DNA of 64,000 bases from Nemertoderma westbladi (Eukaryota > Animalia > Xenacoelomorpha), in contig JAUCBJ010007342.1 of the NCBI GenBank assembly GCA_032718475.1, forward strand, positions 28,948-92,947, read 5' to 3'. The notes beneath the pieces are model-generated. The model saw nothing but the letters and a program-made list of their open reading frames with translations, ran no database searches and was not told where the DNA came from. Positions 1-64,000 of this stretch are shown here, one piece after another; within the stretch, counting starts at the first letter, position 1, and each line of letters starts with the position of its first letter. The position numbers were made by a program, and so were the translations under genes.

Positions 1-1
1 C

Positions 2-1798
2 AAACGGTCTCGGCAATCTATCTTCCAGATCAGTCATGGCGTTGAAGTCGCTCTCCAAATCGCTCTGGACTCCCGATCCCACCTTGACGTAATCTTGGTT
101 GAGAATAGCCTCTCTAACTTTCTTTGGTAACATCCTGGCGTCGATACGCTCCGCTCCGTGCATACCTCCTCGCCTGCATACCTCCAAAATCTGCTCCCTA
201 GGATCCTTCCCCTTCCGATATTGTGTCGTTATGATGGGCTCCGGTCTCTCTCGATCCGCCCTCACACGCATAAACACATGAGTCACACCATCGGCCGCAC
301 GAATTTGAATACACTTGCTGGTCAAACATTCCTGATGGGACCCTCCTTCATTGTCGTAGAACATCACCCTCCAATCCTGCAGTGATTCCTCCGTCTTCCT
401 CCACTGACGCTGAATCTCGTCTGATGGGGTCCACATGCGCTCGATAGCCTTGTGGTCATCATATCGGGTATAAGAACCCTTCCTCCTCAGCCACGTCTGG
501 TCTACCTCCTGGAATGTAGCCACCACGACCCATACCTTGATGTACTTATCCAACCATCCAAATAGCTTACTCTCCTTCCCCGGAGCTCCAATCTTATCCA
601 ACGTGTCATAATCTGTGATCTGCATTGGGACATCACGCAAGAACTTCGCGCATAAAACTTCCCGTAGACAGTCAACGTTCCAATGGTCCGCCATTCTTAC
701 CATCGGCAAGAATCGTATCGCTTCTCGCGACTCCGGATGATCTACTAATATCGCAGGTTCGGTGCCGTCGGAATAATACACCGGTCCGGGTTGAGATACG
801 ACCTGTGGAACAAATCCGGTCACTCTCCTCGTCTCCTCTTGATGTCTATCCGCGGTCTTATTATACTCCGCTATCCTGTTCTCAAATAACTCTTTCGCCT
901 TCGCCGCTCGCTCCTCCTGCCGCAACGCGTCTATGTCGTCCTGATGCTCAGGCGTGAGGCTTCTCACTCGGTGAGGTGAAGTAAACGTAGTCCAGGGACT
1001 CGAGAGCTCCAAACCCGCGGGTTTGGTACCCGAGTCCCGCGCCGCTTCGCGCCGCGCCTCTAGATCCTTGTAGGCTTGGTACAGCGAAATGGCCGCTGCC
1101 GTCTCTATCAAACTGGGTGTCGAACAGGGTTTAATCTCCGTATACGGATCTAATGTCGTAACGGTCGGCGTAATGGGTCTCGGAGGTCGCTTTCCGCTGA
1201 AGTCGATACTGATCATCGGGTTGCTCATCGGGTAACCTCCCTCGTTGTATCTAAGGAATTGGTGAGCTGGACATCGCGTTAATATCGGTTCCGGATGTTG
1301 CTCGTCTAATCGGTCGGGAATCGCTACGTCCTGTTTATTCATGCATTCACCACACTTGTAGAACAGCTTGTACACGCTGAAGACTTTCGGCGTCTCCTGA
1401 TCCTCACCTCGAGTCCTCCGGTACAGATGCATTCCGTCGAACTGATCTCGGACTGCAGGTAGAGGCTCCTCGTGTCGTAAATACATATTCATATGGTATA
1501 GTCGTGCGATTTCCTCGTCCGGGTCTGCGCTAATGTCACACACGTCCAAAGCGAAGTCGTAGGGATACCGCGTGCGATACTCTTTCCGCAAAACTTCCAT
1601 CCGGTCCCCCAACGCTCTCATTCTTTCTCTCCGTAATTCTTTATCATAACTTGGTTTGTACTTTCCATTTAGCTCCATCACGGACCGCCCATGGTAGTAA
1701 ACGTTAGAGTCTTTACATCCTGGTCGCGCGAATGGTAGCTCCGCCTCCTCTCTGGCAGTAAATCCTCTGCGCGGTTGCGCTCTAATATCCCTCTCCAT
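2..1798 (-). CDS. ORF3 of element 1 (3'-partial): CxxC...CxxH domain plus DEDDy-type 3'-5' exonuclease
   Basis: Absent from the ORF track because it runs off the window. Hand translation from ATG 1798 gives MERDIRAQPRRGFT...FSVYKLFYKCGEC...RCPAH...MFYDNEGGSHQ...MLPKKVREAILNQDYVKVGSGVQSDL, colinear with ORF 41344..39374; frame is consistent at both ends. Confidence 0.85.
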   Translation of the reverse strand, partial: MERDIRAQPRRGFTAREEAELPFARPGCKDSNVYYHGRSVMELNGKYKPSYDKELRRERMRALGDRMEVLRKEYRTRYPYDFALDVCDISADPDEEIARLYHMNMYLRHEEPLPAVRDQFDGMHLYRRTRGEDQETPKVFSVYKLFYKCGECMNKQDVAIPDRLDEQHPEPILTRCPAHQFLRYNEGGYPMSNPMISIDFSGKRPPRPITPTVTTLDPYTEIKPCSTPSLIETAAAISLYQAYKDLEARREAARDSGTKPAGLELSSPWTTFTSPHRVRSLTPEHQDDIDALRQEERAAKAKELFENRIAEYNKTADRHQEETRRVTGFVPQVVSQPGPVYYSDGTEPAILVDHPESREAIRFLPMVRMADHWNVDCLREVLCAKFLRDVPMQITDYDTLDKIGAPGKESKLFGWLDKYIKVWVVVATFQEVDQTWLRRKGSYTRYDDHKAIERMWTPSDEIQRQWRKTEESLQDWRVMFYDNEGGSHQECLTSKCIQIRAADGVTHVFMRVRADRERPEPIITTQYRKGKDPREQILEVCRRGGMHGAERIDARMLPKKVREAILNQDYVKVGSGVQSDLESDFNAMTDLEDRLPRPF

Positions 1799-2556
1799 TA
1801 TGTTACGCGTATATACATATATATATATCCCAATAAGTGCCGTTACGTAACCAATTACACTGTGGGTAAATCAGTTAGATGTCGCCGAAAGACAGACCTC
1901 CCGAACCCCCCCCCGCCTTCCAGCAGTTCAGGTTCGACTCTCTAGATCCCGTCTCTTCCTAACTAACTATCCTCTAACCTATTCCCATGCATAGCGCAAA
2001 AACTTTGGAGATAAACTGGCCGTGACCAACTCACTTTTTGATGCCCAAACTACTCCCATTACTCGTACTAAACTACAGTAGTTAGAAAGGACCATAGCCA
2101 CAATACTCGACTATACCAAACCCACAGGTTTGATAATCGAACATCACACATCCTGCAAACTACTGAGTGGGGTCCATGTACGCCTCTGGTGCTACTAACC
2201 TTTAGCACCCTAGTTGCACCGTTGGCACCAATCTGTGGAAGTTGCTAAACTCAATTTACACTCCTACGTAATATAGCCGTCACCATGGTTTCTAAATGCT
2301 ATTTTCCAGGCTTCACGACTTTTCAAATTACTGTTATCTATAGACGAATTCTAAAACGCGTCTATACACAGCGTCTGGAATTGTCTTGGGTTCACTTTTA
2401 ATTTTTAAAATTTTCTAATTTTCCAAAAATTTTGAAATAAAATTTTGTTTTGATACCCACTAGACAAAACTCAACGCAAATCACCACAACCCCGCTCCTA
2501 TGCATTTCCTTGTATTTGCATACGAGGAATGCATACGAAGTGAGTTGCGTCTAACA

Positions 2557-4446
2557 CTATCTCTGTTTTGAGGCAGGAGACAAATTATAATCTCCCGTCT
2601 CGATACGTGTCTCCTCTAATAACACGATATCTTGGACTGGTCGGTCCAAGGTGTGTAAACCATTAGTTTTACACTTCTTTGGGTGCGGACACTTGCACCT
2701 AATTTTCACAGTGACTGTGCGCACTATGTTTTGCACGTCTGGGTGTGTGTGCAAGATCACTCCTGTCTCCCAATACTTTCTCTTGACAATGGGTTCGGTT
2801 ATCAACACGTAATCTCCTCTTTGGAGACTCCGAACCGTTTTGTACCACTTTGTTCTGGTAGATATGGTGGGAAGATAGTATTCCCGCCAATATTCCCAGA
2901 ATGTGTACGCCACAAATTGTGTCACCTTCCAGCTCTTACGACTATATAGGTCGGCACTAACGGGTTCTGATGCCGGCACAAGAAATGCTGGACTCTGCAT
3001 TAGCAAATGATTCGGCGTTAATGCAACACCGTCTGGCAACATAGCTATCGGCCTCGAGTTTAGGGTATGCTCGATTTCAATGAAAGCTGTGACCAGTTCG
3101 TCGTCGGTAAGTTGTTTGTTCACAGGCAATGTTTTGGCAATGGCCTGTTTTACAGAGCGAACTAAACGCTCCCAACTTCCTCCTCTCCAAGGACTTTCTG
3201 GAGTATTAAATCTCCATTCTACTCTTTGCGGCAAAAGTGCTGCAGAAATTTCCTTATTCTGTGCTGCTTTATGAGCCGCGTTCAACTCGCTATTCCCTCC
3301 GACAAAGTTTGTACCCTTATCGGAGTAGAACGCCTTTACTAGTCCTCTCCTGGCCATAAATCTCTTCAAGGCCAGGAGCAGAGATTTGGTCGACATGTCT
3401 GCCACACGCTCGATATGTATGGCTCTACTCGCCATACATGTCAGTAGCAGGCCCCATCTCTTGTGGGTCAGCCGTCCACTCTTTGCTTCAATCGGACCAA
3501 AACAATCCACCCCTGTGTTCGTAAAGGGTGGGTCATATGCCTGCACTCTCGCTTCCGGGAGTTCAGCCATCTCCTGTTCCAATACTCTGGCGTTCACTCT
3601 CTTGCAAACCAGACAGGCGTCGTACATAGTGCCGACTGCCCTGCTTGGCTGCAATAGAATGAATCGCTGTCTCGCTGCCGACAAACAGTGTAACTTTCCA
3701 GCGTGATGCAACCTCTTATGTATATCCCATAGAATCGCTCTTTGCAATTCTATTGGGTGACTAGGGATTATCACTGGGAATCGAAACTGTGAGTTTATGT
3801 CGACAGTCTGGATTCTCGATCTATGACAAATTAAACCCTTATGGATTAATGGACTCCATTTTCTAAGGGGTTTGTAGAGAACTGGTCGCTGAGCCGATAA
3901 TAGATGGAATTCTTTGGGGAAGGCACACATTTGATAATGCTTCAAATGCTTTAATTCCGCTTGATCAATCTCATCCTCTGTCAGAGGTTGTTTCAATTTC
4001 CGAATTCGCTCACTATTGGTGCTCAATGGTTCTCTCAAATGTTTCGAATGTTTTATACAAAGGTACGAAATGTATCGGCTTAACCACGCAGTTCTTTTAC
4101 AAATTGTCAGCCAAGAGGCAGACGAATTTAGTAATTTGTCATAAACACTGCATGACTCTAATGCCAGCGACGGTTGTCCGCTAACTAATGGAAGTTTCGA
4201 ATCCAAACCCGCAGGTTTGGAAACCAAAGGATCCATTGTGTCGGTCATTTTCTGTCCGTCACTTACCAATTGTGACTCCGGTTTAGTCTGTAAGGGTGGT
4301 TTGATGTCATAACTTACCCTTCCGGACCTAGTAGTCAAGCTCCAATGACTCTTCAGGCCGCTCCAATGACTCTTCAGGCCGCTCCAATGACTTAAGTTTG
4401 GCTTTAGACTTCGACTTAGAGACTTTCTCCACCTTGACTTCTGCAT
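2557..4446 (-). CDS. pol: Integrase of element 1 (HHCC zinc finger, DDE core, BEL/Pao C-terminal domain)
   Basis: IHKRLHH...CLVC; TGVDCFGP, YSDKGTNF, GGSWERLV; LNSRP; FWEYWREYY. Confidence 0.92.
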   Translation of the reverse strand: MQKSRWRKSLSRSLKPNLSHWSGLKSHWSGLKSHWSLTTRSGRVSYDIKPPLQTKPESQLVSDGQKMTDTMDPLVSKPAGLDSKLPLVSGQPSLALESCSVYDKLLNSSASWLTICKRTAWLSRYISYLCIKHSKHLREPLSTNSERIRKLKQPLTEDEIDQAELKHLKHYQMCAFPKEFHLLSAQRPVLYKPLRKWSPLIHKGLICHRSRIQTVDINSQFRFPVIIPSHPIELQRAILWDIHKRLHHAGKLHCLSAARQRFILLQPSRAVGTMYDACLVCKRVNARVLEQEMAELPEARVQAYDPPFTNTGVDCFGPIEAKSGRLTHKRWGLLLTCMASRAIHIERVADMSTKSLLLALKRFMARRGLVKAFYSDKGTNFVGGNSELNAAHKAAQNKEISAALLPQRVEWRFNTPESPWRGGSWERLVRSVKQAIAKTLPVNKQLTDDELVTAFIEIEHTLNSRPIAMLPDGVALTPNHLLMQSPAFLVPASEPVSADLYSRKSWKVTQFVAYTFWEYWREYYLPTISTRTKWYKTVRSLQRGDYVLITEPIVKRKYWETGVILHTHPDVQNIVRTVTVKIRCKCPHPKKCKTNGLHTLDRPVQDIVLLEETRIETGDYNLSPASKQR

Positions 4447-7400
4447 CTTCAGGCATCGGATTGGTCACTATCTTTAGTCGCTCTGGCCAATGTTCCTGTG
4501 TCCTCGTTAGAAAATCAGGTCCATGCAACCAAAACTCCTGGGACTCTTCCTGACAGAATTCCGCCGGCATTGCACCTCTCGAAGTTATGTCGGCCGGGTT
4601 CAACACTCCCGGACAATGTCTCCATTGTTCCTTCGTCGAAAAATCAACGATCTGAGCGCGTCTATTGGCCACAAATGTCTTTAGTGCAATATTGTCGGCC
4701 GCAATGTATACTAACACTAAGGATGCGTCCGTCCAATAGAATAAGGTCAATGTCGTGTCTAACTCCTCAGTTATTTGCTTACTTACCTCGACTGAAACTA
4801 CAGCCGCCTGTAACTCTGCACGAGGGACAGTCATGTATTTGACCGGCATAGTCTTTGATCTAGAAGTCACAAAGGCCGTCTCAAACTTGTCCTGACTTAC
4901 CTCTCGGCGAAGGTAGGCTACCATACCAAAGCCGGTGTCACTTGCGTCACTAAATAGGTGGAGCTCTAAATCAGCTGGGAATACCAGCTGATTCGGGAAG
5001 TAGGAGCGGGGTACATCTATGTTTTTCAATAGATGTAACTCGGCTTCCCACTCTCTCCACTGCTTTGCATGTATAGGAGATATTGGTTCGTCCCACTCTA
5101 CGTCGGACAACCAAATTTTCCTCATGCACGCTCGTGCCTGTAATATTACCGGACTGATAAAGTTCATCGGGTCAAATAGTCTACTTAATGTCGATAAGCA
5201 AATCCTCTTTGTCAAAACTTTGTCTGGGCTACTGGGCTCAAATCTAACTCTTACCTGGAACTTATCTGAGTTCGGGTTCCAAGCGAGTCCCAGTACTCGC
5301 GCCATGGGGATTGGTTCTACCCCCAATTCTATGTCTCCGCTCCCGCGATCTTTCACCGGGAACGATTCTAATAGGGCCTCCGAATTCGTAGTGAACTTGG
5401 TCAGAGGAAAACCCCCTGTAGCCAAGCACTCTTGCAGGCCGTGAGCCACTTCTATGGCTTGTTCCGCCGTGTCCTTGGACACCAATCCGTCGTCCATATA
5501 GAAGTTTCTCAAGATGGACTCGATTACTTCTACTGGGTACTTACCAATTTGGGCTGTTGCCGTTTTCTTTAGAACAAACAGCGTGCCATTCGGACTATCG
5601 CGGGCGCCAAATATCCTAACGTACATTTGGTATGTAACCACTGGGCCGGATAAGTCTTCATTCTCGTACCAGAGAAAGCGAAGGCTATCCTGGTCTGCCT
5701 TACAGGCTCTTACCTGGTGGAACATCGCCTCGATGTCACAAGTAAATGCGAATCGCCGCTGTCTAAAACGCAACAGTATTCCTATCAAATAGTTATTCAG
5801 GTTGGGACCATCCATCAACTCTGAATTCAGGGACATACCTCTATAGACTGCTGCGCAGTCGTTGACTACTCGGACTTTGTCTGGCTTGTCAGGGTGAGTC
5901 ACATAGTGGTGCGGAAGGTAATAAGTCTGGTCTGTCACTAAGTCAGGGTCCTCTACCTTCCCAGCAAATCCCTTGGCGAAATAGTTGTTGATCTGGGCGC
6001 AATACTTCTCCCTAATGTCCGGATTCTTCAACAACCGAGCCCTTACTCCGTTTAATCTTTTCAAGGCTAAGTTGTAGTTGTTCTCCAACTTAGGTGGTTG
6101 TCGACGCCACAACATTCCAACTTCAAAATGTCCAGTCGGTAGCAGACGTATGGTATCTTCCATCATCTCCAGCGACCGTTTCTCATCAGTAGACATGGCT
6201 AGGTCATATCCACCGGGTTCCATTGCGTCCCTATCCAGCCATTCGACGGTTCTGGCTCCTGTCTCGAGGTCCTGGCGTATCAATTCTTTCTGCAATTCCT
6301 CCTCACTGTATTGGAAAATGTCGAGGTCTCGATATTTAGCCACTTGACCCTCCACTATGTCTGTATAAGTCAAAACGTTAGTCAGATAAGTAGCGTGGGC
6401 CGCTGAACCAGACCCACGGGTCTGATAACAGTCCTCGGGTTCACTATCTGTCCGGTTGTTATGAAGTGGTTCCGACAACCTAACATTATCGGGAATCAAC
6501 TCCTCGTCCGACTCGCTAAAGTCACTATAGTGGTCAATACAGGTTCTCCTAAACTCGTCTATGTCTGGTGGTTCTACTAACGGTGGTTGAATTATAGGCT
6601 GTAATTCATCGTATCTGTCTATTGGCTTGTCGCCACCTGTAAACTCATAAGACATGGGTACTCGTGTATACCAACCTAGTATAGTCCTATGGGCATGTGG
6701 TCCATTGACATGCGGCTCAGCTGGTCTCGTTTCCCATATTTGGTGTGCGATCAGCTGTTCTGCACCAATCAACATAGAAACATTCCTATAACCTACCTGG
6801 TGTCTGGGTATCCTGAGCTTGTCAAAATACTCCTGTGCTATGGGACTCATCGGCGGCACCTTACCTAACTGCCTGCCGAATCCCTTCATAGCTAGACACT
6901 TAAATCCGTCCAATGGCAAAGCTTTCCGTTCTTGTCGAGTGTGTTGGTCTCTCGGAAGTAGGGAATCTAGTTCTACCGAAATTCTGTGTCCCTTGAGGTC
7001 ACCTACCCCGTGCATAGACTTCAACTCTATTTGGATCTCCTCGGCGTCCTGGAAGCTAGAAACGGCTCTCGCCACTTCCTCGTCGATATACGATAATGTG
7101 GACGCAGTGTCCAACATCACATATATTCGCTTCGATCCCTTATCGCCAGTAAGTTTCACCGGAATCACGCTAAATATTTCCGACGTGGCCGATGATAAAT
7201 ACGTCCGCGCGCTGGTCGATGAACTATCCGCGGTGAAACCTTGGCAGGTCACTTCTCTCGCGCTCGACTCGCCATCCTCGTCCGACGAACCTGGTTGATA
7301 ACCATCGTCCTGGATGCCGGTATACGTATTCCTCCTTATCGATACGGGTTCTTTGCTCCCCTTCCTGTGAGGATTTCGCTGTAAGTAACGGTCCGTTGGG

Positions 7401-8605
7401 GTGTGGAAATCCGCATGTAGCAACTTGTGATGTAGTCTGCCGCACTCCATGCATCCGTCCTTGCTGTTCGGGCACTGCCGCCGTACATGGCCTGGCGCAA
7501 GACATGCCCAACAGGTGTCCAACGTCCGCACTTGAACTCTTCTCTGTTCCGAATTTAATTCCTTGAACCGTCTGCAACTATCTAACTTATGGTCGTCAGA
7601 TCTTACCTCCTTTAGTAAACAGTATTGGCAACCTACAAATCCATCCGGCAACTCCTGTTGCTTTAACCTAGGTCTATCTAACCGCTCACCTGACCATACT
7701 CGCGAGTCTGATCTAAAGGCTGGGGTACTCGAATTATATCTGTCTACTGAGTTAAATGTCACAGTGGTCCTGTCGTCGTCAAAACTTACCATAGACTTAC
7801 CGGTAACAGGTTTAGACTCCCTCATATTCTCTTCTGAGAAGTTTGATTTCATCTCTGCTACTGCGTCTGTGGCTATCATGTCATGAATATGCTGAAGTGT
7901 CAACACCTTACCTTGACCTTCCAGCTTATTCTCTAATTTGCGCCATTTCTGTCGGTAACGCATGTTTAGACGTCTTATTACGCTCTTTAAGACTTCGGCG
8001 TGATCACCATGCTGAGGTAGATTCACCGTCCTCAAGATGTCCAATGCGTTCGAAATAGCGTTCGCTAAGTTCAACAGCTCTAACGGAGTTGTAATCCTTC
8101 CGCCCTTACCCAAGTCTTCTACTATCGACTGCGCCATCTTGGTTTTATTCCCGTAGATGTCACTAAGCGTCTTCATCGCTAACTCGAATGCCCGTTCATT
8201 GCCGACGAAGTTATCAGCAATGGCTCTAGGTTCTCGATGGAGCATCTGAAGCAAATAGTTGAACTTCTCGTTGGGAGTAAAGGTGCTGTTGGTCAGCTGC
8301 TCGTCGACATAGGTTTTAAAGGTCCTCCAGTGCTTATGGTTGCCCATAAACTTCTGGGGTTGTTGCGTCGGCAGTCCTTGCCTAGCAGCAAACTTACCTA
8401 TGTCCCTAAGGGTTGCGTCGTTCCGGGTTAACAAATGGTTTAGTTCCGCAGGGTTATTAAGTCTGGTCCTTTCCCGGTGGTTCCAACTTACCTGCTCCGC
8501 GTCCGTCCTTCTTTCCTTATAGTTTCGGGACTTCTGACGTCTCATTTCTTCCTCTTCATCGCTTGACTCAGTGTCAGTCCTTAGCGCTCGCGATGGTTTG
8601 CGCAC
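4328..8605 (-). CDS. pol: Gag core, zinc knuckles, aspartic protease, RT and RNase H of element 1 (frame open up to about 8755)
   Basis: CQYC...HKLDSC, CWACLAPGHVRRQC, CMECGRLHHKLLH; MLDTAS protease; CDIEAMFHQV and FYMDD RT; LFSDAS and FYWTDAS RNase H. Confidence 0.93.
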   Translation of the reverse strand: MRKPSRALRTDTESSDEEEEMRRQKSRNYKERRTDAEQVSWNHRERTRLNNPAELNHLLTRNDATLRDIGKFAARQGLPTQQPQKFMGNHKHWRTFKTYVDEQLTNSTFTPNEKFNYLLQMLHREPRAIADNFVGNERAFELAMKTLSDIYGNKTKMAQSIVEDLGKGGRITTPLELLNLANAISNALDILRTVNLPQHGDHAEVLKSVIRRLNMRYRQKWRKLENKLEGQGKVLTLQHIHDMIATDAVAEMKSNFSEENMRESKPVTGKSMVSFDDDRTTVTFNSVDRYNSSTPAFRSDSRVWSGERLDRPRLKQQELPDGFVGCQYCLLKEVRSDDHKLDSCRRFKELNSEQRRVQVRTLDTCWACLAPGHVRRQCPNSKDGCMECGRLHHKLLHADFHTPTDRYLQRNPHRKGSKEPVSIRRNTYTGIQDDGYQPGSSDEDGESSAREVTCQGFTADSSSTSARTYLSSATSEIFSVIPVKLTGDKGSKRIYVMLDTASTLSYIDEEVARAVSSFQDAEEIQIELKSMHGVGDLKGHRISVELDSLLPRDQHTRQERKALPLDGFKCLAMKGFGRQLGKVPPMSPIAQEYFDKLRIPRHQVGYRNVSMLIGAEQLIAHQIWETRPAEPHVNGPHAHRTILGWYTRVPMSYEFTGGDKPIDRYDELQPIIQPPLVEPPDIDEFRRTCIDHYSDFSESDEELIPDNVRLSEPLHNNRTDSEPEDCYQTRGSGSAAHATYLTNVLTYTDIVEGQVAKYRDLDIFQYSEEELQKELIRQDLETGARTVEWLDRDAMEPGGYDLAMSTDEKRSLEMMEDTIRLLPTGHFEVGMLWRRQPPKLENNYNLALKRLNGVRARLLKNPDIREKYCAQINNYFAKGFAGKVEDPDLVTDQTYYLPHHYVTHPDKPDKVRVVNDCAAVYRGMSLNSELMDGPNLNNYLIGILLRFRQRRFAFTCDIEAMFHQVRACKADQDSLRFLWYENEDLSGPVVTYQMYVRIFGARDSPNGTLFVLKKTATAQIGKYPVEVIESILRNFYMDDGLVSKDTAEQAIEVAHGLQECLATGGFPLTKFTTNSEALLESFPVKDRGSGDIELGVEPIPMARVLGLAWNPNSDKFQVRVRFEPSSPDKVLTKRICLSTLSRLFDPMNFISPVILQARACMRKIWLSDVEWDEPISPIHAKQWREWEAELHLLKNIDVPRSYFPNQLVFPADLELHLFSDASDTGFGMVAYLRREVSQDKFETAFVTSRSKTMPVKYMTVPRAELQAAVVSVEVSKQITEELDTTLTLFYWTDASLVLVYIAADNIALKTFVANRRAQIVDFSTKEQWRHCPGVLNPADITSRGAMPAEFCQEESQEFWLHGPDFLTRTQEHWPERLKIVTNPMPEDAEVKVEKVSKSKSKAKLKSLERPEESLERPEESLELDY
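4338..4392. repeat. 21-bp tandem repeat (about 2.5 copies) at the RNase H/integrase junction
   Basis: gctccaatgactcttcaggcc repeated; encodes SLERPEE repeats. Confidence 0.85.
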
Positions 8606-8738
8606 CGAGGCCCTGACCCAAGCTTCCTCAATAAATCTTTCCGCCGAATTTTCGAAATTGTGATTATGGATATTCGGGACAGGCGTCCTTACCTGAGGTC
8701 TATGTGGTATAGTCTCCTCCGATATGCGTACTCGTTGA

Positions 8739-10940
8739 CTAGGTTGGACTTTTATCTAACTCAGGCCTGCTGGGATTAGAATTACTTCTTACCTGGGCTG
8801 CTTCCTTTAACCGTAGGTTGCTAAGCATGTCCGTTATAGGTTGGATGTGCGGCGATATAGCTTGCGCTAAACTAGCACTTAACTCATCCCTCGTAATAAA
8901 TTCCTGGCTAGGGTTCTGTTGTATAGTCGGCTCTATCTGAGTAATTCGCTGTCTCTCATATGATCCCTCTTCCGGTTTAACCCGGAAGTTCTCCGTCGAA
9001 CTGGGTCGGCGCTCCGTCCGCGTATTCCAAACCCGCGGGTTCGGTTCGCCAAGTACTCGTCCCGTCGGAGTTTCTTCTCTAAATTCTCCGTTGTCGCGTT
9101 CGGTATACAGTGGTGCGGTGTTCCGATGACGTAGATCCTGGGCGATGGGTGAAGCACTAATACCAACTGGCGTGCGATATGTAGAGAACGGTTTAACGAT
9201 CCGTGTACTCGTAATAGCTGGACCGGGTATAGGAATTCTGGTCGTCGTCGACTCGCGTATAGTCGGAGTTCTCGCTTCCTGTTCGGCCTTCTGCAGTGCG
9301 AACAGCTCTCGCAACTCTGTCCCTACACTCGCCCCACATTCTTCGATCATTCGCATCCCCTTCTCGGCGATTTCATTCGCCTTCCTAGTCCATTCTTCGC
9401 TCTCTAAACTTAATCTCGCACTTTCCAACTGCGCCAGTTTACGCTCTTCTTCTTCCCTCGCTCGTCTCGCTGCGCTCTCTTCTTCCACTCGCGCCTTTTC
9501 TTCATACAATGCGCGTCTTCTTTTTTCGATCTCGAGTTCGCGTTCCTTGCGTCCGCGTTCGAGTTGAAGCTCGCGCTCCTTCTGTTCACGATCGAGTTTC
9601 TTGCGCTCGCGTTCGGCTTGGAGTTCGCGTTTCTTCGCTTCCTGCTCGCGTTCGAGTTGGAGTTCGCGTTTCTTCGCTTCCCGCTCGCATTCAAGTTGGA
9701 GTTCGCATTCTCTCTGTTCGCGTTCGAGTTCCTCGCGCTCGCGCTCGGCTTGGAGTTCGCGTTCCCTTTGCTCGCGTTCCGCTCGCTCGCGCTTACTTAT
9801 CTCTTCCAACTCTCGTAACTCTGCATCCAACTTACGTGTGCGCTCCCGTTCCCGCTCGGCTTCCTTCCGTGCTTCCTGTGCACGCAAAACTTCCGCCTGC
9901 TGTTCGTCTAGTCGGCGTCTTCTCTCCTCCGCCGAGTTGTGAGAAACAAGGGATCTAGCACATATTACCTTACCTCGCGCGTGACTAACCTGGGAATCGC
10001 CGCTGTCTCTAGATGCATCGTCGGGTGGAGTCAACGTCCTCTGTTGGATGTTCTCCGTCGTCGGTAGCACCTGACCTGGTACCACCACTCCATTCTGCAT
10101 CAGCCAGCTAGTAACTTCCCTCTGATAACGGCGCCCTTCTTTATCCTGCGTCTCTTCACGCTCCACTAAGTCTCTCAACTCTGCGTCACTCACCTGAGTC
10201 GCCTGCGTTTGTGATGCCCATAGCAGCCAGTTCTCCGTCCTAACTCGTCGAAATCGCTCCGATAACTCGCGGTGCTCCAACAAGGCTGCTAAAACCCTGT
10301 CGTAAATCCTCGTTGCTACGTCGCTCGACTGAGACTCTACTGCCTTCTTCGCTAGGACTGCAAGCTCCTCCGTCTGCTTGAATAACGCTGAGTTATATCC
10401 TCTTCTAATTTCTACTAACTCTACCCTCCCGATGTTCGCTGAGTCGGCTAACATCTTCCTTACCTTGTCCGTCGTCCGAGTTATATGTCCGGCGTGCGCG
10501 CAAAGTTTCTTCTTTATCGCGATATCAAGTTCTCTCTCGCTTACCTGACTCACACTCGGTGGACTTGAAGGATTATTTCGGGAACTACGGGTACTCCTAA
10601 CAGCCGTCGGGACCACGGCACTTACCATACCCACAGGTCTGGAAACCGGGCTCCGGGCTCTCGCTTCTGCTACACTACTCTCCCTATCACTCACCTCTGT
10701 CCGGGCTGCTGTACAGTCCTTCCTATCAGTAGCGGTAGGGGATCCTAATACTATTACTTGAGGTTGCTCTTCTTCCTCACTAGTCACTGTCTCGTCCTCC
10801 TGTTCACTTACGTCAGCGTCGCTCGCTGCGTCGTCATAGTCGGGATTGTCGTCAACAGTAATGTTTACGCTATCGTCAGTCGGCGGTCCAGCCGCCGTCT
10901 CATAGCTGTCCTCTAGTGCCTCCTTGTCTGAGACACTCAT
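8739..10940 (-). CDS. gag: N-terminal Gag region of element 1 (acidic N-terminus, long E/R-rich coiled coil); joined to the next ORF by an apparent 1-bp indel
   Basis: Similar layout to the N-terminal part of the 2350-aa ORF of element 2 (AHAGHITRT vs GHMAQITRN). Removing one A from the A4 run at 8750-8753 fuses it in frame to ORF 8605..4328. Confidence 0.8.
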   Translation of the reverse strand: MSVSDKEALEDSYETAAGPPTDDSVNITVDDNPDYDDAASDADVSEQEDETVTSEEEEQPQVIVLGSPTATDRKDCTAARTEVSDRESSVAEARARSPVSRPVGMVSAVVPTAVRSTRSSRNNPSSPPSVSQVSERELDIAIKKKLCAHAGHITRTTDKVRKMLADSANIGRVELVEIRRGYNSALFKQTEELAVLAKKAVESQSSDVATRIYDRVLAALLEHRELSERFRRVRTENWLLWASQTQATQVSDAELRDLVEREETQDKEGRRYQREVTSWLMQNGVVVPGQVLPTTENIQQRTLTPPDDASRDSGDSQVSHARGKVICARSLVSHNSAEERRRRLDEQQAEVLRAQEARKEAERERERTRKLDAELRELEEISKRERAEREQRERELQAEREREELEREQRECELQLECEREAKKRELQLEREQEAKKRELQAERERKKLDREQKERELQLERGRKERELEIEKRRRALYEEKARVEEESAARRAREEEERKLAQLESARLSLESEEWTRKANEIAEKGMRMIEECGASVGTELRELFALQKAEQEARTPTIRESTTTRIPIPGPAITSTRIVKPFSTYRTPVGISASPIAQDLRHRNTAPLYTERDNGEFREETPTGRVLGEPNPRVWNTRTERRPSSTENFRVKPEEGSYERQRITQIEPTIQQNPSQEFITRDELSASLAQAISPHIQPITDMLSNLRLKEAAQVRSNSNPSRPELDKSPT

Positions 10941-12218
10941 AGTCTAAATAATGTTTGCCTTCCGGCAAAAATATCTCGCAAAAGTTCGAGATATAATTAT
11001 AATTTAACCGAAAATACGGTCAAATTATTTGTCAAATAATCAGTTGGTCCAAAATGTCAAAATAAATTCGCAATGCAATATTGTGAATTTAATGGGGTAT
11101 ATAGTTATAGCAAATACTAACACAATATTTAAACAAAATATTATTATTTAGCTATTATATAGCATTAAATACCGGTATAGCACAAAATAACTTTGAATCT
11201 AATACAAAATATTCAAAATAAACTTGCCGCCCGAATATTTCTAATTTTATATATATAGCTCTAATCAACGTAATTTTAATTTCAAATATTATATGTATCC
11301 ACTAGCGCGTGGCTACATCTTCGGGTTGCGACTCTCTCTAACTCTCTCTCTAACTTGAGCGATTCAAAACCATGGCCGGCTAAACCTAAATATCCTAACT
11401 AATAAATTGAGTTCAGCTTCGCAGTTAAACAACCGATAATTTTTTACTGCTTCCACAAACACACTGGTGCCAACAGAACAACTAACCTTGTTTGCTGTGA
11501 GATTCCACGTCCGCGTCCAAAGATTCAGGCCCTTCGCTGATTGCAAACCGAACCCGCAGACCCACACGAACCCCAAACTCAGAAGTTCCGTCTTGCCATG
11601 TATCTCCAGATGGTATAAAATAACTAAGCGGTTACCTAACATACCGGTACAAAACTCTAGAATTTTACAAATAATTTTGACCGAAAACTGAATTCTCGCA
11701 AACCTAGCTAAAATTTTCAAAAACTTACTAATTACTGTTTGCCCTAAGGCCTAAGGAACTGCTGTATTCGCAATTAGCAAAACGCACTACCGTACATTCA
11801 CTGTATGCAGTACAGTAAGTAAAACAGTACACCAACCTAACAGCCTAATGTACTACTGTACTATTGTACGCAGCCAGTGAATACAGTAATCTAAACTAAC
11901 AGCCTAAAGGAATATACTCAATGTCTTACTGTACGCTAGCCTATAGCCTACAGCAGACGATCACGTGCTCCAATTTATTGCCTAATACTATGATACTACT
12001 ATCAGCCTAAGAATACTCTATTGACCGCTGCAAGCAACAGCCAATAGCGCGTATTACTGATAAACAACCGCGACCTCTATACTAACAGCAGAACTGTTGA
12101 ACAGACCAATACCCGTTAATATCCTTCTGCCAACCTAATAAGTTCTCGTCTAACCAATAAGACACAAAGACTGCTCTACTGTTAAGTAAAGGGGATCAGG
12201 AGCGTGCTATTACTAAAT

Positions 12219-14448: not shown

Positions 14449-14465
14449 TATCGCTGGATGACGCA

Positions 14466-27161: not shown

Positions 27162-27185
27162 CCTTTCATTGCGAATACGTAGATT

Positions 27186-34699: not shown

Positions 34700-36488
34700 T
34701 GTAAGGGTCCAGTAGTATACCGCTTACCAGATCCTAGTAACGATGTATCTTACTATGAGACTCTAGTAATGTATACGGGCTTGTACAGTATCTGACAACA
34801 AATCCCAGTCCAGGATATCTAAACAAACAGATATAGTACACAAACGACTACTGGCGAGGAACAGAGCCTTGTATCTATTCTATGTACGTGAGCGGGTCGA
34901 ATGCCTACGTACTAGACAGAAGGATACCTGTCCTCTAACCGGTGAGGCAGATGTACAGTTACAGTAACAGACCAAACTCACGGGAAAACAATCCCCGCGC
35001 AGCGAATCCTAACTATCACTGACAGTCCTAAATACAGTAACTTGCCGCGGTGTGATTTATATGGTTTATATACGAACTAGGTGGTTAACAGACCTAGTGT
35101 AACAATGCTGATCATCCCTGTCGAAATCAGCCTAAAGGTCGTGCCTAAATGTAACAATAACTGATCCCCCTGTACGAAATCAGTCTAAAAGGTCAGGCCT
35201 AAATGTAACAATACCGTTGTCCAGACAAACAACAGTTTAATAACGAAAGTGAAATACTCCTTATCTTGCCGCAACTAAATCAGATCCTAATTTTACAAAT
35301 ACAGATAATTTCTACCTAACGTAATGTATAGTACGCTATAGCTAGTAGAACTTTAAGGGCGATATGTTTTAGGGCGTGTGTGTGTGGGTGTGTTACAAAT
35401 AAAACAATTTCGTGTAATTCCTTTTACTAGGTTTTAATGATTTTCTGACTAAAATGATACCGTGCGCTAGCTACTAAAATAAACTAGTCGCGTTTGTAGA
35501 ACTTTATACTCACGAATGACGTCAAAGCTCTCTCCTTCCTATCCACAACCCAATGGGCAACCACAGTGTTAGTAACTACACCCGTGATCGGCACTAATAC
35601 CAGATTCTGGTTGTAAGATAAGAATAGGGGTTAATCGCTACCGTACGTTAGCTGATCTGGTATACTAATTTAATTCTAGAACTTTGTTGCTGCGGTAGTT
35701 AGCAGCAATACCTATCAGTACGTGGCAAGGCGCGGTAGGATATTAATAAACCTCCCTAGGCCAAGCAGTGTGCCGGTAGCAGAAATGCTCCTTGCCTGAT
35801 CAAATAGCTAACTCCAGACAGGGGGGGGGGGGGGGTACTAATGTACATTCTACAAAGCGAACCGGTACCAAACAGTCAGTGCTATGAATCACTAAATTAT
35901 GGAACGTATGCTGTCCGTACCTAATATGTACTCGCGTACTGACGAATGGCAATAGTTCGCACCTGTAGGAAGTACAGGTTAACCCAGGGATTCGTAGGAC
36001 TTGACAAAGGGGGGGTGTCTGGATATAATTATTTGATCCTAAATTTGCGGCGTCCAGTACGGTGTCACGCTTACCCTGATCTATAGGTCTTACGGCGGGC
36101 AAGGGCGTCGAACAAAGTCTTACCTTCTCACAAAGCGGGCGCTGCATAGCAAGTGGAGTATTTCGAAGGGGCAAAGGGGGTGCGCGGTCAATCCAAATGT
36201 GGGCGCTAGCGTGTTGTGGACATCCCTTCCCTGCGTTGCTTACGGCCTAACGATCTAGGCTGCCATCTCCCTGGTGTTCGGCTGTCCCGAAGTCGGACCA
36301 AAAGAAAACATGTCAGGAAATTGCAGTATATTTACAGTTTTACAAAAGGATTTATCAAATAAAGTTTCAACAAGAAACCGAATTAACTAATTTTACAAGA
36401 ATAAACGATATCAGGATGATAACATGAGTAAGGAGTGATAACCGAAGGCAAACCGGCCTTTTATACTAGAAATTGCACATGGAAACTA

Positions 36489-36690
36489 AACAGAATTTTC
36501 CACAGCTTCACAATTGAGCAATAAAGTGCTTCGTGCTCTATGATTGGCCCAGCTCATCGTTCAACGCAGTCCGGCCCTTACACTAATCTGGGACATGGAA
36601 TCCTAACAGAATTTTCCACTGCCTCACATTTGAGCAATAAGATAATTTATGCCCTATGATTAGCCTGGCTCATCATTCGCTACGCTGTAC
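36489..36690. promoter_or_regulatory. About 116-bp tandem duplication with CCAAT-like boxes in U3 (also in the 5' LTR)
   Basis: aacagaattttccac...tgagcaataa...ctatgatt(g/a)gc...gctcatc occurs twice; the enhancer role is inference. Confidence 0.5.
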
Positions 36691-36750
36691 GCTTCTCATT
36701 GGCCTACCAATTAGCACCACACGAAAATAAATGGCCCCAAAATACAAATT

Positions 36751-36819
36751 TCCCGACTGGGATTCGAACTCGTAACCTACGTAATGTAACCAACGCCTTA
36801 ACCATCTGACCACTACGCC
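36751..36819 (-). other. tRNA-derived Pol III-like cassette inside the 3' LTR
   Basis: A box TGGTCAGATGG, B box GAGTTCGAATCC, TTTT about 10 nt downstream; acceptor and anticodon arms do not pair. Confidence 0.65.
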
Positions 36820-36963
36820 ACGAGAGTACCTAAGGGTTTTATGTGTACAAATATGAATAGGCATATTACATTACTGTAACTTAATCAAAATACGTCGGAT
36901 TTTCAAAAGTTTTTACGTTAAAGTTAAACTACAAATGCTACCTTATAGTGAAATAATTCATCA

Positions 36964-36973
36964 CCGCTCCATG
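36964..36973 (-). promoter_or_regulatory. Polypurine tract of element 2
   Basis: Sense strand CATGGAGCGG immediately before the TGATG start of the 3' LTR. Confidence 0.6.
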
Positions 36974-37588: not shown

Positions 37589-39358
37589 CTATTCCTTCGC
37601 TGAGCGGGCTCGTCCACGTCCTCTAGTGCGATTGGGGGGTGGTCGAGGTCGAACTGGGCTCGGACTTCGGCGTCGAGTCGTCGGTGGTTCCAAAACGCTA
37701 GGAAAGGGGACGACGGGAGTTTCGCACATCCGTCGTGCGCTCAATCCTCTAAATCCTCGTCCGATTCCAACTGTCGACTTAACATCGGATCGAGTTTCTA
37801 CAACGCTAGGAGGAAGTCGAAAGGGTAGGACTGTTCCGTCCGTTGACACCTCGCTCTCTGACGTCGTTTGAATCCTAATGGGTTCAGTCAAAGCGTATCC
37901 TGTCCCTCCGCGTGGTTCTCTAGCAAGGGAAACCGTGCCCCGAGTCATCCGGATTTGCGACTTCGATGTCGTCCTCTCGGCGACATTCACTATCTTCTTA
38001 ATCTCTTGTCCGGCCTTCTGGGCTTTGAGTATACGAAATTGCTGATCATCCTGTGGGTGACGCGTCTTCTCCGCTAACGGCGTGGCCTTGAAGCCAGTCT
38101 CACGCAAAACGTCGGTCTCGTCCAGAATGCACGAGGTTACGCGTTTGTGATAAAATGCGCTCCGGTATGCCCAAGCTATCGAATGCCAGGCTCCTCGATT
38201 CCGCTGTTCAACTCGCAGTTTATCGAATTCTCCGGCGGTAATCTTGTTCACCACAGTTTGAAAGTTCCAAGTATTCTTGTTGTCCGGGTGCACTTGTAAG
38301 AAATAGTCCCGCACAACTTTGAATCCACTGTCCAACGGCAATATATCCAATACCTCCAACAATTCATCGTACTGAGGCATAGCCGATACATATCCTTCCT
38401 TTGACATTATGAGAGGGTTTACGGCCCAAAATCCCAAATGTGCTCTCATAGGGAAGCGGCGTCGCTGCGTCGATACATGCTCGTCTGCTAGATCCTCCCA
38501 ATGGTCGAATAATTGTCGAACGATTTTAACTGACATGTGCTCATAGGGGACGTCTCTAAGTTGACATTCAGATGCCCTATGGCCCTTAATATTACAATAA
38601 ATACACTGCGCCACGAAACGCCAGCAAGTGTAGAAAGTGTGCGAACGTTGATCCCCGCACCAGTTGCATACTAGATCCGGTAGAGATATGTGCTTCGCTC
38701 CGCACTTCTTTGCGTGATGGCCAGTTGCTCCACATCTGCCACATATAGTGTTGGCAGGATACCAAACTCGCTCATAGATGAGGTCTCCGATGGGGCGAGC
38801 GCTACCGTCCACGTGATAATTCTCATCATCCGGGTCAGTCGGTATGTTCGTCTCCGTAGGTTGTACACAAACCATGGCATCGCTTTTCTCTAACTCGCGT
38901 ATCTCAGTTCGCGTCTTCCTTGGAAGGTTCTCTTCTATTTCTATGAGTTGCCGTAACGGTTCGTCTATTAGCGCCAACTCGGTCGGATCCACATCGTCAT
39001 GATGGGCGGTAGGCTCGCGAGCCTTCCAGGATCCTTCCGGGCGTTCGAATTCCGCGTGGCGTTCCCCGTCATAGGGTACTAACGTTAACATCGACGGTCT
39101 GTCAACTAGACTTCCCGCGTGAGTGAGATAGACGTCCCTGAAAACGCTAAGTCCCGCTCGCGTGAAAACTTCGCAGTGCGCATCGGTGTTATAAAAGGGT
39201 TGGAGAAATCGTCGGAATACATCAGTATGCGTCCTTCCTCCATCGTAAAAGGTATGTCCTTCGCCAAGACATAACGGGTGTCGCTTTAAGGTTCTGGATA
39301 CTACGTCCGCGATGAAACAAACGTTAACCGAAGATTCTATCGCTAAATAGTATTGCAA
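37589..39358 (-). CDS. ORF3 of element 2, C-terminal part: ExoIII-like motif, three CCHC zinc knuckles, basic R/S/P tail
   Basis: QYYLAIE; CGRCGATGHHAKKC, CNWCGDQRSHTFYTC, CIYCNIKGHRASEC. In frame with 41344..39374 across a single TGA. Confidence 0.82.
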   Translation of the reverse strand: MQYYLAIESSVNVCFIADVVSRTLKRHPLCLGEGHTFYDGGRTHTDVFRRFLQPFYNTDAHCEVFTRAGLSVFRDVYLTHAGSLVDRPSMLTLVPYDGERHAEFERPEGSWKAREPTAHHDDVDPTELALIDEPLRQLIEIEENLPRKTRTEIRELEKSDAMVCVQPTETNIPTDPDDENYHVDGSARPIGDLIYERVWYPANTICGRCGATGHHAKKCGAKHISLPDLVCNWCGDQRSHTFYTCWRFVAQCIYCNIKGHRASECQLRDVPYEHMSVKIVRQLFDHWEDLADEHVSTQRRRFPMRAHLGFWAVNPLIMSKEGYVSAMPQYDELLEVLDILPLDSGFKVVRDYFLQVHPDNKNTWNFQTVVNKITAGEFDKLRVEQRNRGAWHSIAWAYRSAFYHKRVTSCILDETDVLRETGFKATPLAEKTRHPQDDQQFRILKAQKAGQEIKKIVNVAERTTSKSQIRMTRGTVSLAREPRGGTGYALTEPIRIQTTSESEVSTDGTVLPFRLPPSVVETRSDVKSTVGIGRGFRGLSARRMCETPVVPFPSVLEPPTTRRRSPSPVRPRPPPNRTRGRGRARSAKE

Positions 39359-39373
39359 GATTATCCGCGGAGG

Positions 39374-41344
39374 TCAAGTAATCGCCCAATACACGCAACC
39401 TCGCCACTTCAACTGTGACTCGAACTCATTTACGCCGGGGGTATCTCCCTCTCCGTATACGTCCGTGTATTTGTTCCTCTTACTCTCCTTGTAATCCCAA
39501 CTGAACATCAGATATGAGATATAACCCGTCCCAGTTTTTAGCGTGTTATACTCTCTAAAGTATCCTTGCTCAATAGCCCAAAGCAACAATGGTCTAGTAT
39601 CCACGTATGGCGTAGGCAATCGGTCCTCTTCCGTGGGCATCCCTGCAAAGTCGCTAATGAGGTCATCCCGTACACCGGATCCGATCTTGACGATGCTCTT
39701 ATCCAACACAACGTCTCGCACGGCCTTTGGCAACATCCTAGCTTCTATGCTACAAGCCAGGTCCATGGATTTAACTATCCGTTTTATCATCGCGTGTCTT
39801 TGCGTCGTTCCTTCCGGCATAGGCATCTTCCTATCACTCCTCTGTCGGCTGAAGACATGTAACACGCCATCTGGTGCTCTAATCTGTATCGTCTTTGAAG
39901 TGAGGCTTTGCTGATGGCTTCCTCCTTCATTATCGTAAAACATATATCCATTCTCTTTCAGAGATCGGCTAGTCACGTCCCAATCGTCGAGTAAATCATC
40001 GGTAGGGTTCCAAATTCTCCCGATCGACTTTTCATCATCGAAACTAATAGGTTTACCAGTCCAATTGGTCGCGATATCGGTGTCGGTCTCAAACGTCCCA
40101 ACTCCGATCCATAATCGAATCGTTTTCGTCAGATATCCTCGCAAGATACAAGGTGCGATATCCGTCCCCGCGCGATCCACTTCCTTAAAGTCCGTGATAT
40201 GTGGAGGCACGTTGCGTACGATTTTTTGAACTATTACTTTACGCAACTCGGTTGATTCTAACACATCACCGAAGGTGACCGATGGGAGGAAATCCAGGTT
40301 CGAGATGATCTCCGGGTGTTCAACTATAGGGATCTCGTAAGTTGTCTCCTTCCGGGTCGGTATACTAATAGGAAAACTAGTTGGTCTCGCAACCGGTACT
40401 ATTGCTCCAGTAGAATGGGGCTGAGGTTCTCGCGTCATCTCAACGTGAGGTATCTGTAGTCTCTGCGACAAACGCTGAGCAAAGGTGATACTATCGAAGA
40501 GCTCGGGTGTCATCTCCTTGGGTTCGGTTTGATCGTGGGATATCCAATAGAATGGTAGGCTCGCAAGCCTTCCGCCGAACTCCTCGATCTCGCCTTTCTC
40601 GTACGCCTTGTACGCCCTGTAGAGGCTCAAAGCTTCCCGTTTCTCTTGTGTCGACTTGTTAGACTCGTCCACTACCATGCTGTAGACGTCTGGTTCGACT
40701 AATTTAGGTTCGTAAATAACGATCTCACCCGCGTTCGGTCCACTCATCTTAAATGAATGATACGGATTTGTCAAAGGGTATCCGCCTTCTTGGTAACGTA
40801 GACTTTGGTGGTGTGAACATCGCGCTAATATCGGCTCGGGGTTCTCCGAATTCAACCGCATAGGAATCGCGTTGTCTTGCTCGCGCATACACGCTCCACA
40901 TTTATAAAACAGTTTGTATACGGAAAACGCGTCCTTGGTCTCTGGATCCGCTCCTCGAGCGCGTCTATAAAGATGCATTCCTTCAAATTCGTCTCTAGCT
41001 GCAGGTAAAGGTTCGTTTACCGTCAAATATTGCAGCGTATGATACAATCGGCGTATTTCGGTGTCTGGATCCTCGCAAATGTCGCTAGCGTCGCATAACG
41101 CATCGTAGGGATATAACGCATTGTATTCCGCGCGTAATTCCTCCGTTCTTTTGTTGTATGCGTCCAACCGCTGTCGCGTAACATTCGGGTCCGCCTTGGA
41201 TTTAGCGAGCTTGGCCGTACTCCTAGCCATACTCTCCACTCCAAACACACTAAAGTTTTTAGCTCCATAACGATTGAATGGCGCCTGGTGCTCCTGTTCT
41301 TGCGTAAACCCTTGACGTAACTCTTTATACATCTTCTCCGCCAT
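39374..41344 (-). CDS. ORF3 of element 2, N-terminal part: CxxC...CxxH domain plus DEDDy-type (WRN/EXD/RNase D-like) exonuclease
   Basis: ExoI FYDNEG; LPKAVRDVVLDKSIVKIGSGVRDDL fits the LP..L..ll.d..i.KvG.gi..D ExoII pattern; YVDT; homologous to ORF 1798..2. Confidence 0.82.
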   Translation of the reverse strand: MAEKMYKELRQGFTQEQEHQAPFNRYGAKNFSVFGVESMARSTAKLAKSKADPNVTRQRLDAYNKRTEELRAEYNALYPYDALCDASDICEDPDTEIRRLYHTLQYLTVNEPLPAARDEFEGMHLYRRARGADPETKDAFSVYKLFYKCGACMREQDNAIPMRLNSENPEPILARCSHHQSLRYQEGGYPLTNPYHSFKMSGPNAGEIVIYEPKLVEPDVYSMVVDESNKSTQEKREALSLYRAYKAYEKGEIEEFGGRLASLPFYWISHDQTEPKEMTPELFDSITFAQRLSQRLQIPHVEMTREPQPHSTGAIVPVARPTSFPISIPTRKETTYEIPIVEHPEIISNLDFLPSVTFGDVLESTELRKVIVQKIVRNVPPHITDFKEVDRAGTDIAPCILRGYLTKTIRLWIGVGTFETDTDIATNWTGKPISFDDEKSIGRIWNPTDDLLDDWDVTSRSLKENGYMFYDNEGGSHQQSLTSKTIQIRAPDGVLHVFSRQRSDRKMPMPEGTTQRHAMIKRIVKSMDLACSIEARMLPKAVRDVVLDKSIVKIGSGVRDDLISDFAGMPTEEDRLPTPYVDTRPLLLWAIEQGYFREYNTLKTGTGYISYLMFSWDYKESKRNKYTDVYGEGDTPGVNEFESQLKWRGCVYWAIT

Positions 41345-41384
41345 CGTATACGAATATATGCGGTTACATATCGTTACGTTTCTA

Positions 41385-41415
41385 CTAGATGAAGCACAAA
41401 ATAGAGGTTAGATGT
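41385..41415 (-). promoter_or_regulatory. Candidate 3' splice site upstream of ORF3
   Basis: Sense ACATCTAAC branch point, pyrimidine tract, TAG/TAG. The same ACATCTAAC...CAG occurs at 1882-1860 in element 1. Confidence 0.6.
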
Positions 41416-52103: not shown

Positions 52104-52134
52104 GTCTTATTATATACGTCAAGTACGGGTAATA

Positions 52135-63998: not shown

Positions 63999-64000
63999 AG

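Follow-up and report, generated by a model that had tools for sequence, protein, structure and literature searches.

How long terminal repeat (LTR) retrotransposons recognize their own RNA among sister families, and how their long unspliced RNA passes nuclear surveillance, is little understood beyond a few models. The subject here is an array of short hairpins in two LTR retrotransposons, elements 1 and 2, which are BEL/Pao elements judging by their domains and lie in a 64,000-nucleotide (nt) stretch of contig JAUCBJ010007342.1 (positions 28,948 to 92,947), referred to in its full length as the window.

Cer1 of C. elegans is among the closest described systems: a spliced accessory protein, CERV, is reported to be needed for export of unspliced RNA, and splicing is likely the default without CERV (PMC10309623). 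Elements 1 and 2 resemble Cer1 and the Rev/Rev response element (RRE) pair of HIV in that an LTR element carries an accessory protein, here the product of a third open reading frame (ORF3); in the known systems, this protein is described as coming from a spliced mRNA, having a Cys-rich putative RNA-binding module and exporting unspliced RNA (PMC10309623). Unlike the single structured region of Rev/RRE, the candidate signal here is a set of 7 and 12 dispersed, family-specific hairpins of 18-20 nt, and unlike CERV and Rev, ORF3 combines an exonuclease-like domain with knuckles and belongs to a BEL/Pao element.

The dispersed packaging signals described for single-stranded RNA viruses and hepatitis B virus also consist of many short stem-loops with a shared loop motif spread across coding sequence (PMC6281560); here, however, the stems are near-invariant within a family and differ between sister families, and the carrier is a nuclear-transcribed retrotransposon. 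Retroviral nucleocapsid (NC) targets are tetraloops with exposed Gs: the HIV-1 NC knuckles are reported to bind G2 and G4 in the tetraloops of SL2 and SL3 (PMC7599994), and Rous sarcoma virus (RSV) NC to bind the UGCG tetraloop of SL-C, a loop that did not set Gag specificity in vitro (PMC5035970). Those targets are single copies in a larger 5'-leader structure, whereas the hairpins here are dispersed and the leader is empty of them. Short family-specific motifs multiplied by tandem duplication, together with a transposon-encoded protein, are described for VANC of VANDAL elements (PMC5735166), but those motifs are non-coding double-stranded DNA, in contrast to the sense-strand RNA-hairpin behaviour seen here, mostly in coding linkers. 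Lastly, the bdelloid LTR elements Juno and Vesta are described as having an extra ORF3 with a DEDDy-type domain (PMC5408684); they belong to a different lineage, the likeness is one of description between unaligned ORF3s, and the word hairpin is absent from the main text of that report. The array as a whole may therefore be likened to dispersed packaging signals or to a distributed response element. Among mainly non-subscription papers, no title or abstract opening was found that describes donor arrays in BEL/Pao elements or family-specific hairpins dispersed along them.

The hairpin arrays of elements 1 and 2

The window is repeat-rich eukaryotic DNA, probably from an animal, with three BEL/Pao LTR retrotransposon stretches and one long interspersed element (LINE), all on the minus strand. 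Element 1 runs from base 1 to about 14100, element 2 from 34700 to 55382 (about 20.7 kilobases, kb) and element 3, an ordinary BEL fragment, from 58200 to 64000. The hairpins of elements 1 and 2 are real and under selection, and most likely serve as an RNA self-tag. They are given below with their places relative to the protease (PR), reverse transcriptase (RT), RNase H (RH) and integrase (IN) regions.

1009..1026, minus strand: element 1, ORF3 linker; loop CGCG; orthologous to the copy at 40554
2116..2133, minus strand: element 1, non-coding IN-ORF3 spacer; loop UGUG; outer U-G pair
4203..4220, minus strand: element 1, RH-IN linker; loop UGCG; orthologous to the copy at 43645 (33 vs 34 codons before the same SW motif)
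6408..6425, minus strand: element 1, PR-RT linker; loop CGUG; compensatory G-C at pair 4
7694..7711, minus strand: element 1, between capsid and Gag zinc knuckles; loop CGCG; compensatory U-A closing pair, G-A mismatch
9027..9044, minus strand: element 1, N-terminal gag open reading frame (ORF); loop CGCG; G-U at pair 5
10625..10642, minus strand: element 1, N-terminal gag ORF; loop UGUG; G-A mismatch at pair 4; consensus splice donor overlapping the 3' end
37433-37452 and 37556-37575, minus strand: element 2, two hairpins in the 3' untranslated region
39008..39027, minus strand: element 2, distal ORF3
40554..40573, minus strand: element 2, ORF3 linker
41706..41725, minus strand: element 2, IN-ORF3 spacer
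43645..43664, minus strand: element 2, RH-IN linker; compensatory C-G closing pair; loop CGUG
47539..47714, minus strand: element 2, three hairpins in the PR-RT linker at 78-nt spacing; cores identical, flanks diverged
50229..50341, minus strand: element 2, two hairpins in gag at 93-nt spacing
51359..51378, minus strand: element 2, N-terminal gag

A preliminary description of this DNA had listed six hairpins in element 1 with the sense loops CGCG, UGUG, UGCG, CGUG, CGCG and UGUG. All six are real, lie within 1 nt of where they had been placed and have those loops, but a seventh copy, at 7694-7711, had been missed, and the proposed consensus fits most copies with two falling short of an exact fit (G-A at pair 4 of 10625 and G-U at pair 5 of 9027). 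The ORF3 copy had also been placed shortly after a YxAYK motif, at analogous positions in both elements. This is what is found: the hairpin starts about 11-13 codons past the K in both, its loop starts 20 (element 1) or 18 (element 2) codons after the Y, and the two sites align with each other in the ORF3 alignment. Arm-plus-loop half-sites occur in element 2 only within full hairpins (12/12). Element 1 has unpaired half-sites, namely two copies of loop plus 3' arm in the leader (11549-11570) and one of 5' arm plus loop in ORF3 (752).

Hairpins were counted by a family-blind rule, which demands a 4-nt YGYG loop, three closing Watson-Crick pairs and 6/7 pairs formed. On the sense strand, element 1 has 7 such hairpins against a dinucleotide-shuffle mean of 0.23 (maximum 2 in 200 shuffles), and element 2 has 12 against 0.56 (maximum 4). 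Coding copies taken alone number 6 in element 1 against a synonymous-codon-shuffle mean of 0.32 (maximum 2, 300 shuffles) and 9 against 0.45 in element 2. By the same rule, element 3, the LINE and the element 2 LTR have 0 hairpins, and positions 11000-14450 give one match, which is unrelated to the element hairpins; the 5' leader holds no hairpin. A covariance model of the 19 copies found nothing else in the window above 9.8 bits, the 19 themselves matching by construction.

For comparison, 472 BEL/Pao loci were confirmed in metagenome contigs, and the best 80 of them served as controls (572,329 nt, many near-duplicates). They contain 25 sense and 20 antisense YGYG hairpins, with 57 loci having none, 21 one and 2 two, and no repeated hairpin family of more than 3 copies was found in them for any loop of 3-7 nt. 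The covariance model gave 4 matches in these loci, all with E of 4 or worse. Both comparisons suggested in the preliminary description thus favour the hairpins, as their frequency is far above dinucleotide and synonymous-codon shuffles with 0 in element 3, and control loci have at most 2 each, none with an ORF3 match. A search of viral contigs found no BEL loci. Among the controls, L056, L058, L031, L062 and L022 have plus-strand ORFs of 683-1117 amino acids past integrase, none ORF3-like, and L031 and L058 have a second gag copy.

Pairing, loop and orientation

Read from the loop outwards, the two families have the pairs Y-R, C-G, R-Y, R-Y and A-U in common (ARRCY-loop-RGYYT), while their outer pairs differ; the element 2 stem has a fixed A-A mismatch in its 12 copies. 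The stem of element 1 had been described as different from that of element 2, which has to be corrected: the stems are homologous, because both families share the inner five pairs and differ in them by compensatory transitions. A family-specific stem joined to a conserved loop at the RNA level is nonetheless supported by the strand, frame, pairing and conservation data. The second and fourth loop positions are G in 19/19 copies and positions 1 and 3 swap C and U, with UGCG as the commonest loop (10/19). At least 8 changes at positions 1 and 3 against none at the Gs would arise about 1 time in 250, a rough count in which the events are partly dependent. CpG decay as the sole source of the YGYG loop is ruled out, since decay would alter the loop Gs as often as the Cs, and the Gs stay constant while the Cs change.

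All four purine-pyrimidine pairs that depart from Watson-Crick pairing are G-U on the sense strand (4/4), the other departures being G-A (2) and A-A (12), and within the elements there are three compensatory pairs (6408, 7694, 43645). In the 10 distinct rows of the alignment, 90% of cells pair and 5/8 pairs change on both sides. Covariation, proposed earlier as a check, is upheld in its score, which 0/500 shuffles reached, and falls short in the pair count, which 100/500 reached; most double changes trace to the single split between the families. Folding energy barely tells the strands apart (sense better in 6/10, equal in 2, antisense better in 2). When folded locally within 58 nt, 13/15 copies tested take up the hairpin as their minimum-energy structure, the exceptions being 9027 and 43645, and the z-score is weaker than -1.5 in 8/15, which counts against the observation.

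All 19 copies face the same way (19/19). Fifteen of the 19 are coding, lying in linkers with all three frames used, and the rest are in spacers or the untranslated region; coding constraint as the cause of the hairpins is ruled out by the three frames, the spacers and the synonymous shuffles. Elements 1 and 2 have orthologous ORF3 and RH-IN sites, which agree in both position and frame, so orthologous sites took on family-specific stems.

Conservation among duplicates and genomic copies

The tandem duplicates of element 2 keep 20/20 core bases, and their ungapped flanks match at 16-36 of 58. Variation among genomic copies was taken from public contigs on 47500-47750 (three runs with cover, two samples; 40 of 41 variant rows). 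These data are contigs and cover element 2 rather than element 1, and at two of the three hairpins their summed depth is about 1.5-2.5 times too high. Among the variants listed, those at a 1% share within 47530-47720 fall on 0/54 inner hairpin positions and 37/137 others (p 9e-7), and those at a 5% share on 0/54 and 9/137 (p 0.047). Third codon positions give 0/18 in hairpins against 14/45 elsewhere (p 0.004). Only two of the listed variants touch a hairpin, both at the outermost pair, leaving the inner 18 nt variant-free.

Organization of the elements and ORF3

In element 1, N-terminal gag and capsid-knuckle-PR-RT-RH are encoded in two ORFs, integrase is encoded in a further one, and ORF3 runs off the edge of the window; the ORF layout of element 2 is the same.

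2..1800, minus strand: element 1 ORF3, incomplete at the edge of the window; has an N-terminal domain without known family, a linker and the start of a likely DEDDy-exonuclease domain
2557..4464, minus strand: element 1 integrase ORF, in a frame that differs from gag-pol
4328..8755, minus strand: element 1 capsid-knuckles-PR-RT-RH ORF, with 12 consensus splice donors inside
8739..10943, minus strand: element 1 N-terminal gag ORF, its frame discontinuous with the next ORF in this copy; 8 consensus splice donors
34700..36964, minus strand: element 2 3' LTR, 97.3% identical to the 5' LTR at 53109-55382; hairpin-free
37589..41344, minus strand: element 2 ORF3, interrupted in this copy by a stop (39374-39376); has an N-terminal domain, a likely DEDDy exonuclease, a set of three CCHC-like knuckles at about 38540-38800 and an Arg-rich tail
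42078-44072, minus strand: element 2 integrase ORF, separate from gag-pol
45051-52106, minus strand: element 2 gag-pol ORF

The Pfam families PF03564, PF05380, PF17921 and PF18701 are present in both elements, and Gag in each has three Cys-His knuckles followed by the order PR-RT-RH-IN. The closest database proteins have the same Pfam domains, with integrases at most 39% identical. By this domain content, both are BEL/Pao LTR retrotransposons. The two are 57% identical in RT-RH and 43% in ORF3, and form one long-branch clade (SH-aLRT 100) in a quick tree of 79/83 rows, those with matches of at least 330 residues; element 3 is also on a long branch. The LTR ends of element 2 are TG/CA. No matching target-site duplication was found around element 2, and the second LTR of element 1 is outside the window.

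Past RNase H, the pol frame of both elements closes with a Lys-rich stretch and a short tandem repeat (window 4328-4464, 44072-45051; 21 nt in element 1 and 12 nt in element 2). Integrase has its own ORF in each, preceded in element 2 by a 980-nt spacer. Both families appear highly repeated in the host, with relatives among public contigs diverged to 80-87% identity (window 1-14500, 47500-47750), and loose contig ends near 12126 and 14107 suggest the LTR limits of element 1.

The middle of ORF3 is likely a DEDDy-exonuclease domain, as it looks like a WRN-type exonuclease in the ESM Atlas (score 0.92, 171 shared features), where ten of the ten best named look-alikes are in one family or clan. 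Candidate ExoI/II/III acidic motifs of the forms DxE, D and YxxxE can be recognized by eye. The distal part of element 2 ORF3 has three CCHC-like knuckles, for which Pfam zf-CCHC gives E 0.019, below the cut-off, and an Arg-rich tail. Two AlphaFold models of ORF3 were unusable (pLDDT 33 and 35). No homologues of ORF3 were detected by word searches of 5.8 billion proteins, by HMMER over 1.84 billion representatives or in viral and metagenome contigs; phages gave one chance match only (E 4), and the N-terminal domain had no match in the ESM Atlas. In favour of ORF3 as a reader of the hairpins, Egalitarian is reported to grip stem-loops via its exonuclease-homology domain without use of catalytic residues (PMC13186709).

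Splice donors and acceptors

Consensus 5' splice donors, defined by an 8/9 match, are concentrated on the sense strand of both elements (2034-10694 and 41582-52959, minus strand), with 23 against 2 on the antisense strand in element 1, and 16 against 4 in element 2. Their density per 10 kb is 21.0 in element 1 and 9.9 in element 2, compared with 2.5 on each strand of the controls. Donor counts in gag-pol are beyond all 200 synonymous shuffles (8 vs 2.9, 12 vs 3.2 and 9 vs 1.4), the integrase count is at chance, and ORF3 has none. A weakly predicted branch point and acceptor lie just upstream of each ORF3, both branch points being CTAAC-type:

1860..1878, minus strand: weakly predicted pair of branch point and acceptor for element 1 ORF3
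41385..41411, minus strand: weakly predicted pair of branch point and acceptor for element 2 ORF3

Between predicted acceptor and ORF3 start, both elements have a very short upstream ORF (1798-1860, 41344-41385). Hairpins within 12 nt of a donor number 2/7 in element 1 and 0/12 in element 2, too weak to use, and AATAAA is not depleted. In human cells, intact 5' splice sites are reported to promote nuclear retention and decay (PMC11629677), and a 5' splice site joined to a poly(A) junction to trigger nuclear decay (bioRxiv 10.1101/2024.07.23.604837). A role for the donors in HUSH evasion finds no support, as intron protection is reported to be independent of the 5' splice site (PMC8770142).

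Possible function of the hairpins

The reading that we favour, with a probability of about 0.42, is that the hairpins are landing sites for the element's own ORF3 and license unspliced genomic RNA in a Rev/CERV-like switch. It is backed by the copy number, strand bias, frame independence, pairing pattern and copy conservation of the hairpins and by the donor excess upstream of ORF3. In the splicing, reader, binding mode and outcome that we infer, transcripts would splice by default from one upstream donor to the predicted acceptor before ORF3, and ORF3 would accumulate from the spliced mRNA. Its zinc knuckles may recognize G2 and G4 of the loop, with the family-specific stem recognized by another domain. 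Full-length RNA coated by ORF3 would be spared splicing, retention in the nucleus or decay, and would be exported. Within each family, stem and reader would change in step, and new hairpin copies may arise by local duplication in protein linkers. The invariant, family-specific stem points to an element-encoded reader, with which we infer the hairpins to co-evolve.

Several observations weigh against this switch. Six hairpins are inside or downstream of the predicted ORF3 exon, so that the array would not be confined to unspliced RNA. The combination of hairpins with ORF3 is seen in a single clade and is confounded with element size; as elements 1 and 2 form one long-branch clade, it amounts to a single evolutionary event. 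An ORF3 match occurs in 0/80 control loci, yet this bears on a minority of them, as only 24 extend at least 1.5 kb past integrase. The exonuclease-like domain has no Pfam (including PF01612) or PDB match, the ORF3 knuckle region of element 1 is outside the window, and Gag also has knuckles, both in elements 1 and 2 and in hairpin-less controls. On the side of splicing, the donor density of element 2 is near that of the top control (9.2 per 10 kb), and the acceptor rule is loose, with 5 and 11 sense and 19 and 12 antisense matches. The loop CpGs have no low-level variants (0/3, vs 11/13 flanking CpGs), which a DNA-bound protein would also explain.

The hairpins could instead be dispersed packaging or condensation signals read by Gag, which would select the very long genomic RNA and fold it into the family's own particles; this, the main rival of the switch, is possible but doubtful. 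Retroviral packaging signals are usually in the 5' leader, which here has no hairpins, and, as with the switch, six copies are in or after the predicted spliced ORF3 exon. Even spacing would suit such a role (coefficient of variation, CV, 0.26, P 0.003 in element 1; CV 0.48, P 0.046 in element 2 with tandem copies collapsed), as would the length of element 2 and the three knuckles of Gag, but the spacing of protein linkers can itself yield even hairpin spacing, the knuckles look ordinary by eye next to those of hairpin-less BEL loci, and the donor array is left unexplained. The loop does match known NC targets (PMC7599994, PMC5035970), and dispersed packaging signals are described in RNA viruses (PMC6281560), yet the UGCG loop of RSV is reported to have mattered for NC and not for Gag specificity (PMC5035970). 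That the motif is a near-palindromic double-stranded DNA site, bound by an element-encoded anti-silencing protein like VANC that keeps the element unmethylated or transcribed, is improbable. The near-palindrome with its CpG core, its family-specific motifs multiplied by tandem duplication in the VANC pattern (PMC5735166) and a CpG observed/expected of 1.06 and 1.19 in elements 1 and 2 (1-10943, 37000-53100), against 0.55-0.67 in element 3, LINE and flank, are in its favour. A DNA dimer, however, should not see the fixed orientation, the sense-only C/U loop changes or the G-U pairs; the LTR has no copies and a high CpG (0.94) anyway; 15/19 copies are coding, unlike VANC sites; and the variant-free loop CpGs that the idea draws upon depend on a depth denominator inflated at two of the three hairpins.

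Two further readings fit worst. A host RNA-binding protein, whether an Egalitarian-type transport adaptor or a stability factor, might read the hairpins and move or protect the RNA, which is highly improbable: a loop and five inner pairs common to both families would be expected of such a reader, but it is left unexplained why 12 copies keep one family stem with an A-A mismatch and the sister family another, and why element 3, in the same host, has no hairpins. The ILS signal has been linked to the I factor. The Egl-BicD complex is reported to bind stem-loops, ILS among them (PMC13186709). Least probable of all, and largely refuted, is that the copies are neutral products of template switching or slippage, spreading and homogenizing a short palindrome. 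The tandem duplicates of element 2, and contigs with unit-number changes and loose ends near hairpin edges, are of the kind it predicts, but cores stay identical while duplicated flanks decay, inner hairpin positions show no variation among genomic copies in the variants listed, orthologous sites have outlasted a split that leaves RT-RH 57% identical, and compensatory pairs are present.

The candidate signal comes in two natural spellings of a 20-nt hairpin, and the ORF3 domains and Gag NC are its two candidate readers. If reciprocal specificity holds, the pairs would be natural orthogonal RNA tag-reader modules, of which MS2 and PP7 are comparable examples, and would clearly exemplify the concerted evolution of RNA motifs dispersed within protein-coding sequence. 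A broader and rather unlikely extension is a two-layer RNA code in giant LTR retrotransposons, in which a U1-binding donor array would hold genomic RNA spliced or nuclear-retained, and family hairpin barcodes read by an element-encoded exonuclease/zinc-knuckle protein would release the RNA of their own family only. If this is true, an animal genome would harbour a system of RNA self-recognition that is orthogonal and co-evolving.

Other features of the window

Rfam gave 0 matches at gathering score in the window, and no tRNA was called. A tRNA-like stretch is seen by eye inside the element 2 LTR (36740-36810, matching part of the other LTR), without an ARAGORN or Rfam call. The LINE-like element lies at 25167-32841 on the minus strand; its first ORF has a Ulp1/C48 protease domain and, over a long stretch, a 30-nt Pro/Ser repeat, and a stop is present between endonuclease and RT. 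It is flanked by 36-nt tandem arrays (23560-24870, 33035-34690) in which most units have a 5-bp hairpin with a YTCG loop, and the element 2 LTR starts where the second array ends. CpG observed/expected in 20300-23500 is 0.91. Positions 14469-20300 and 21306-23102 hold a satellite of 15/17 nt and an element whose inverted ends are 336 nt long.

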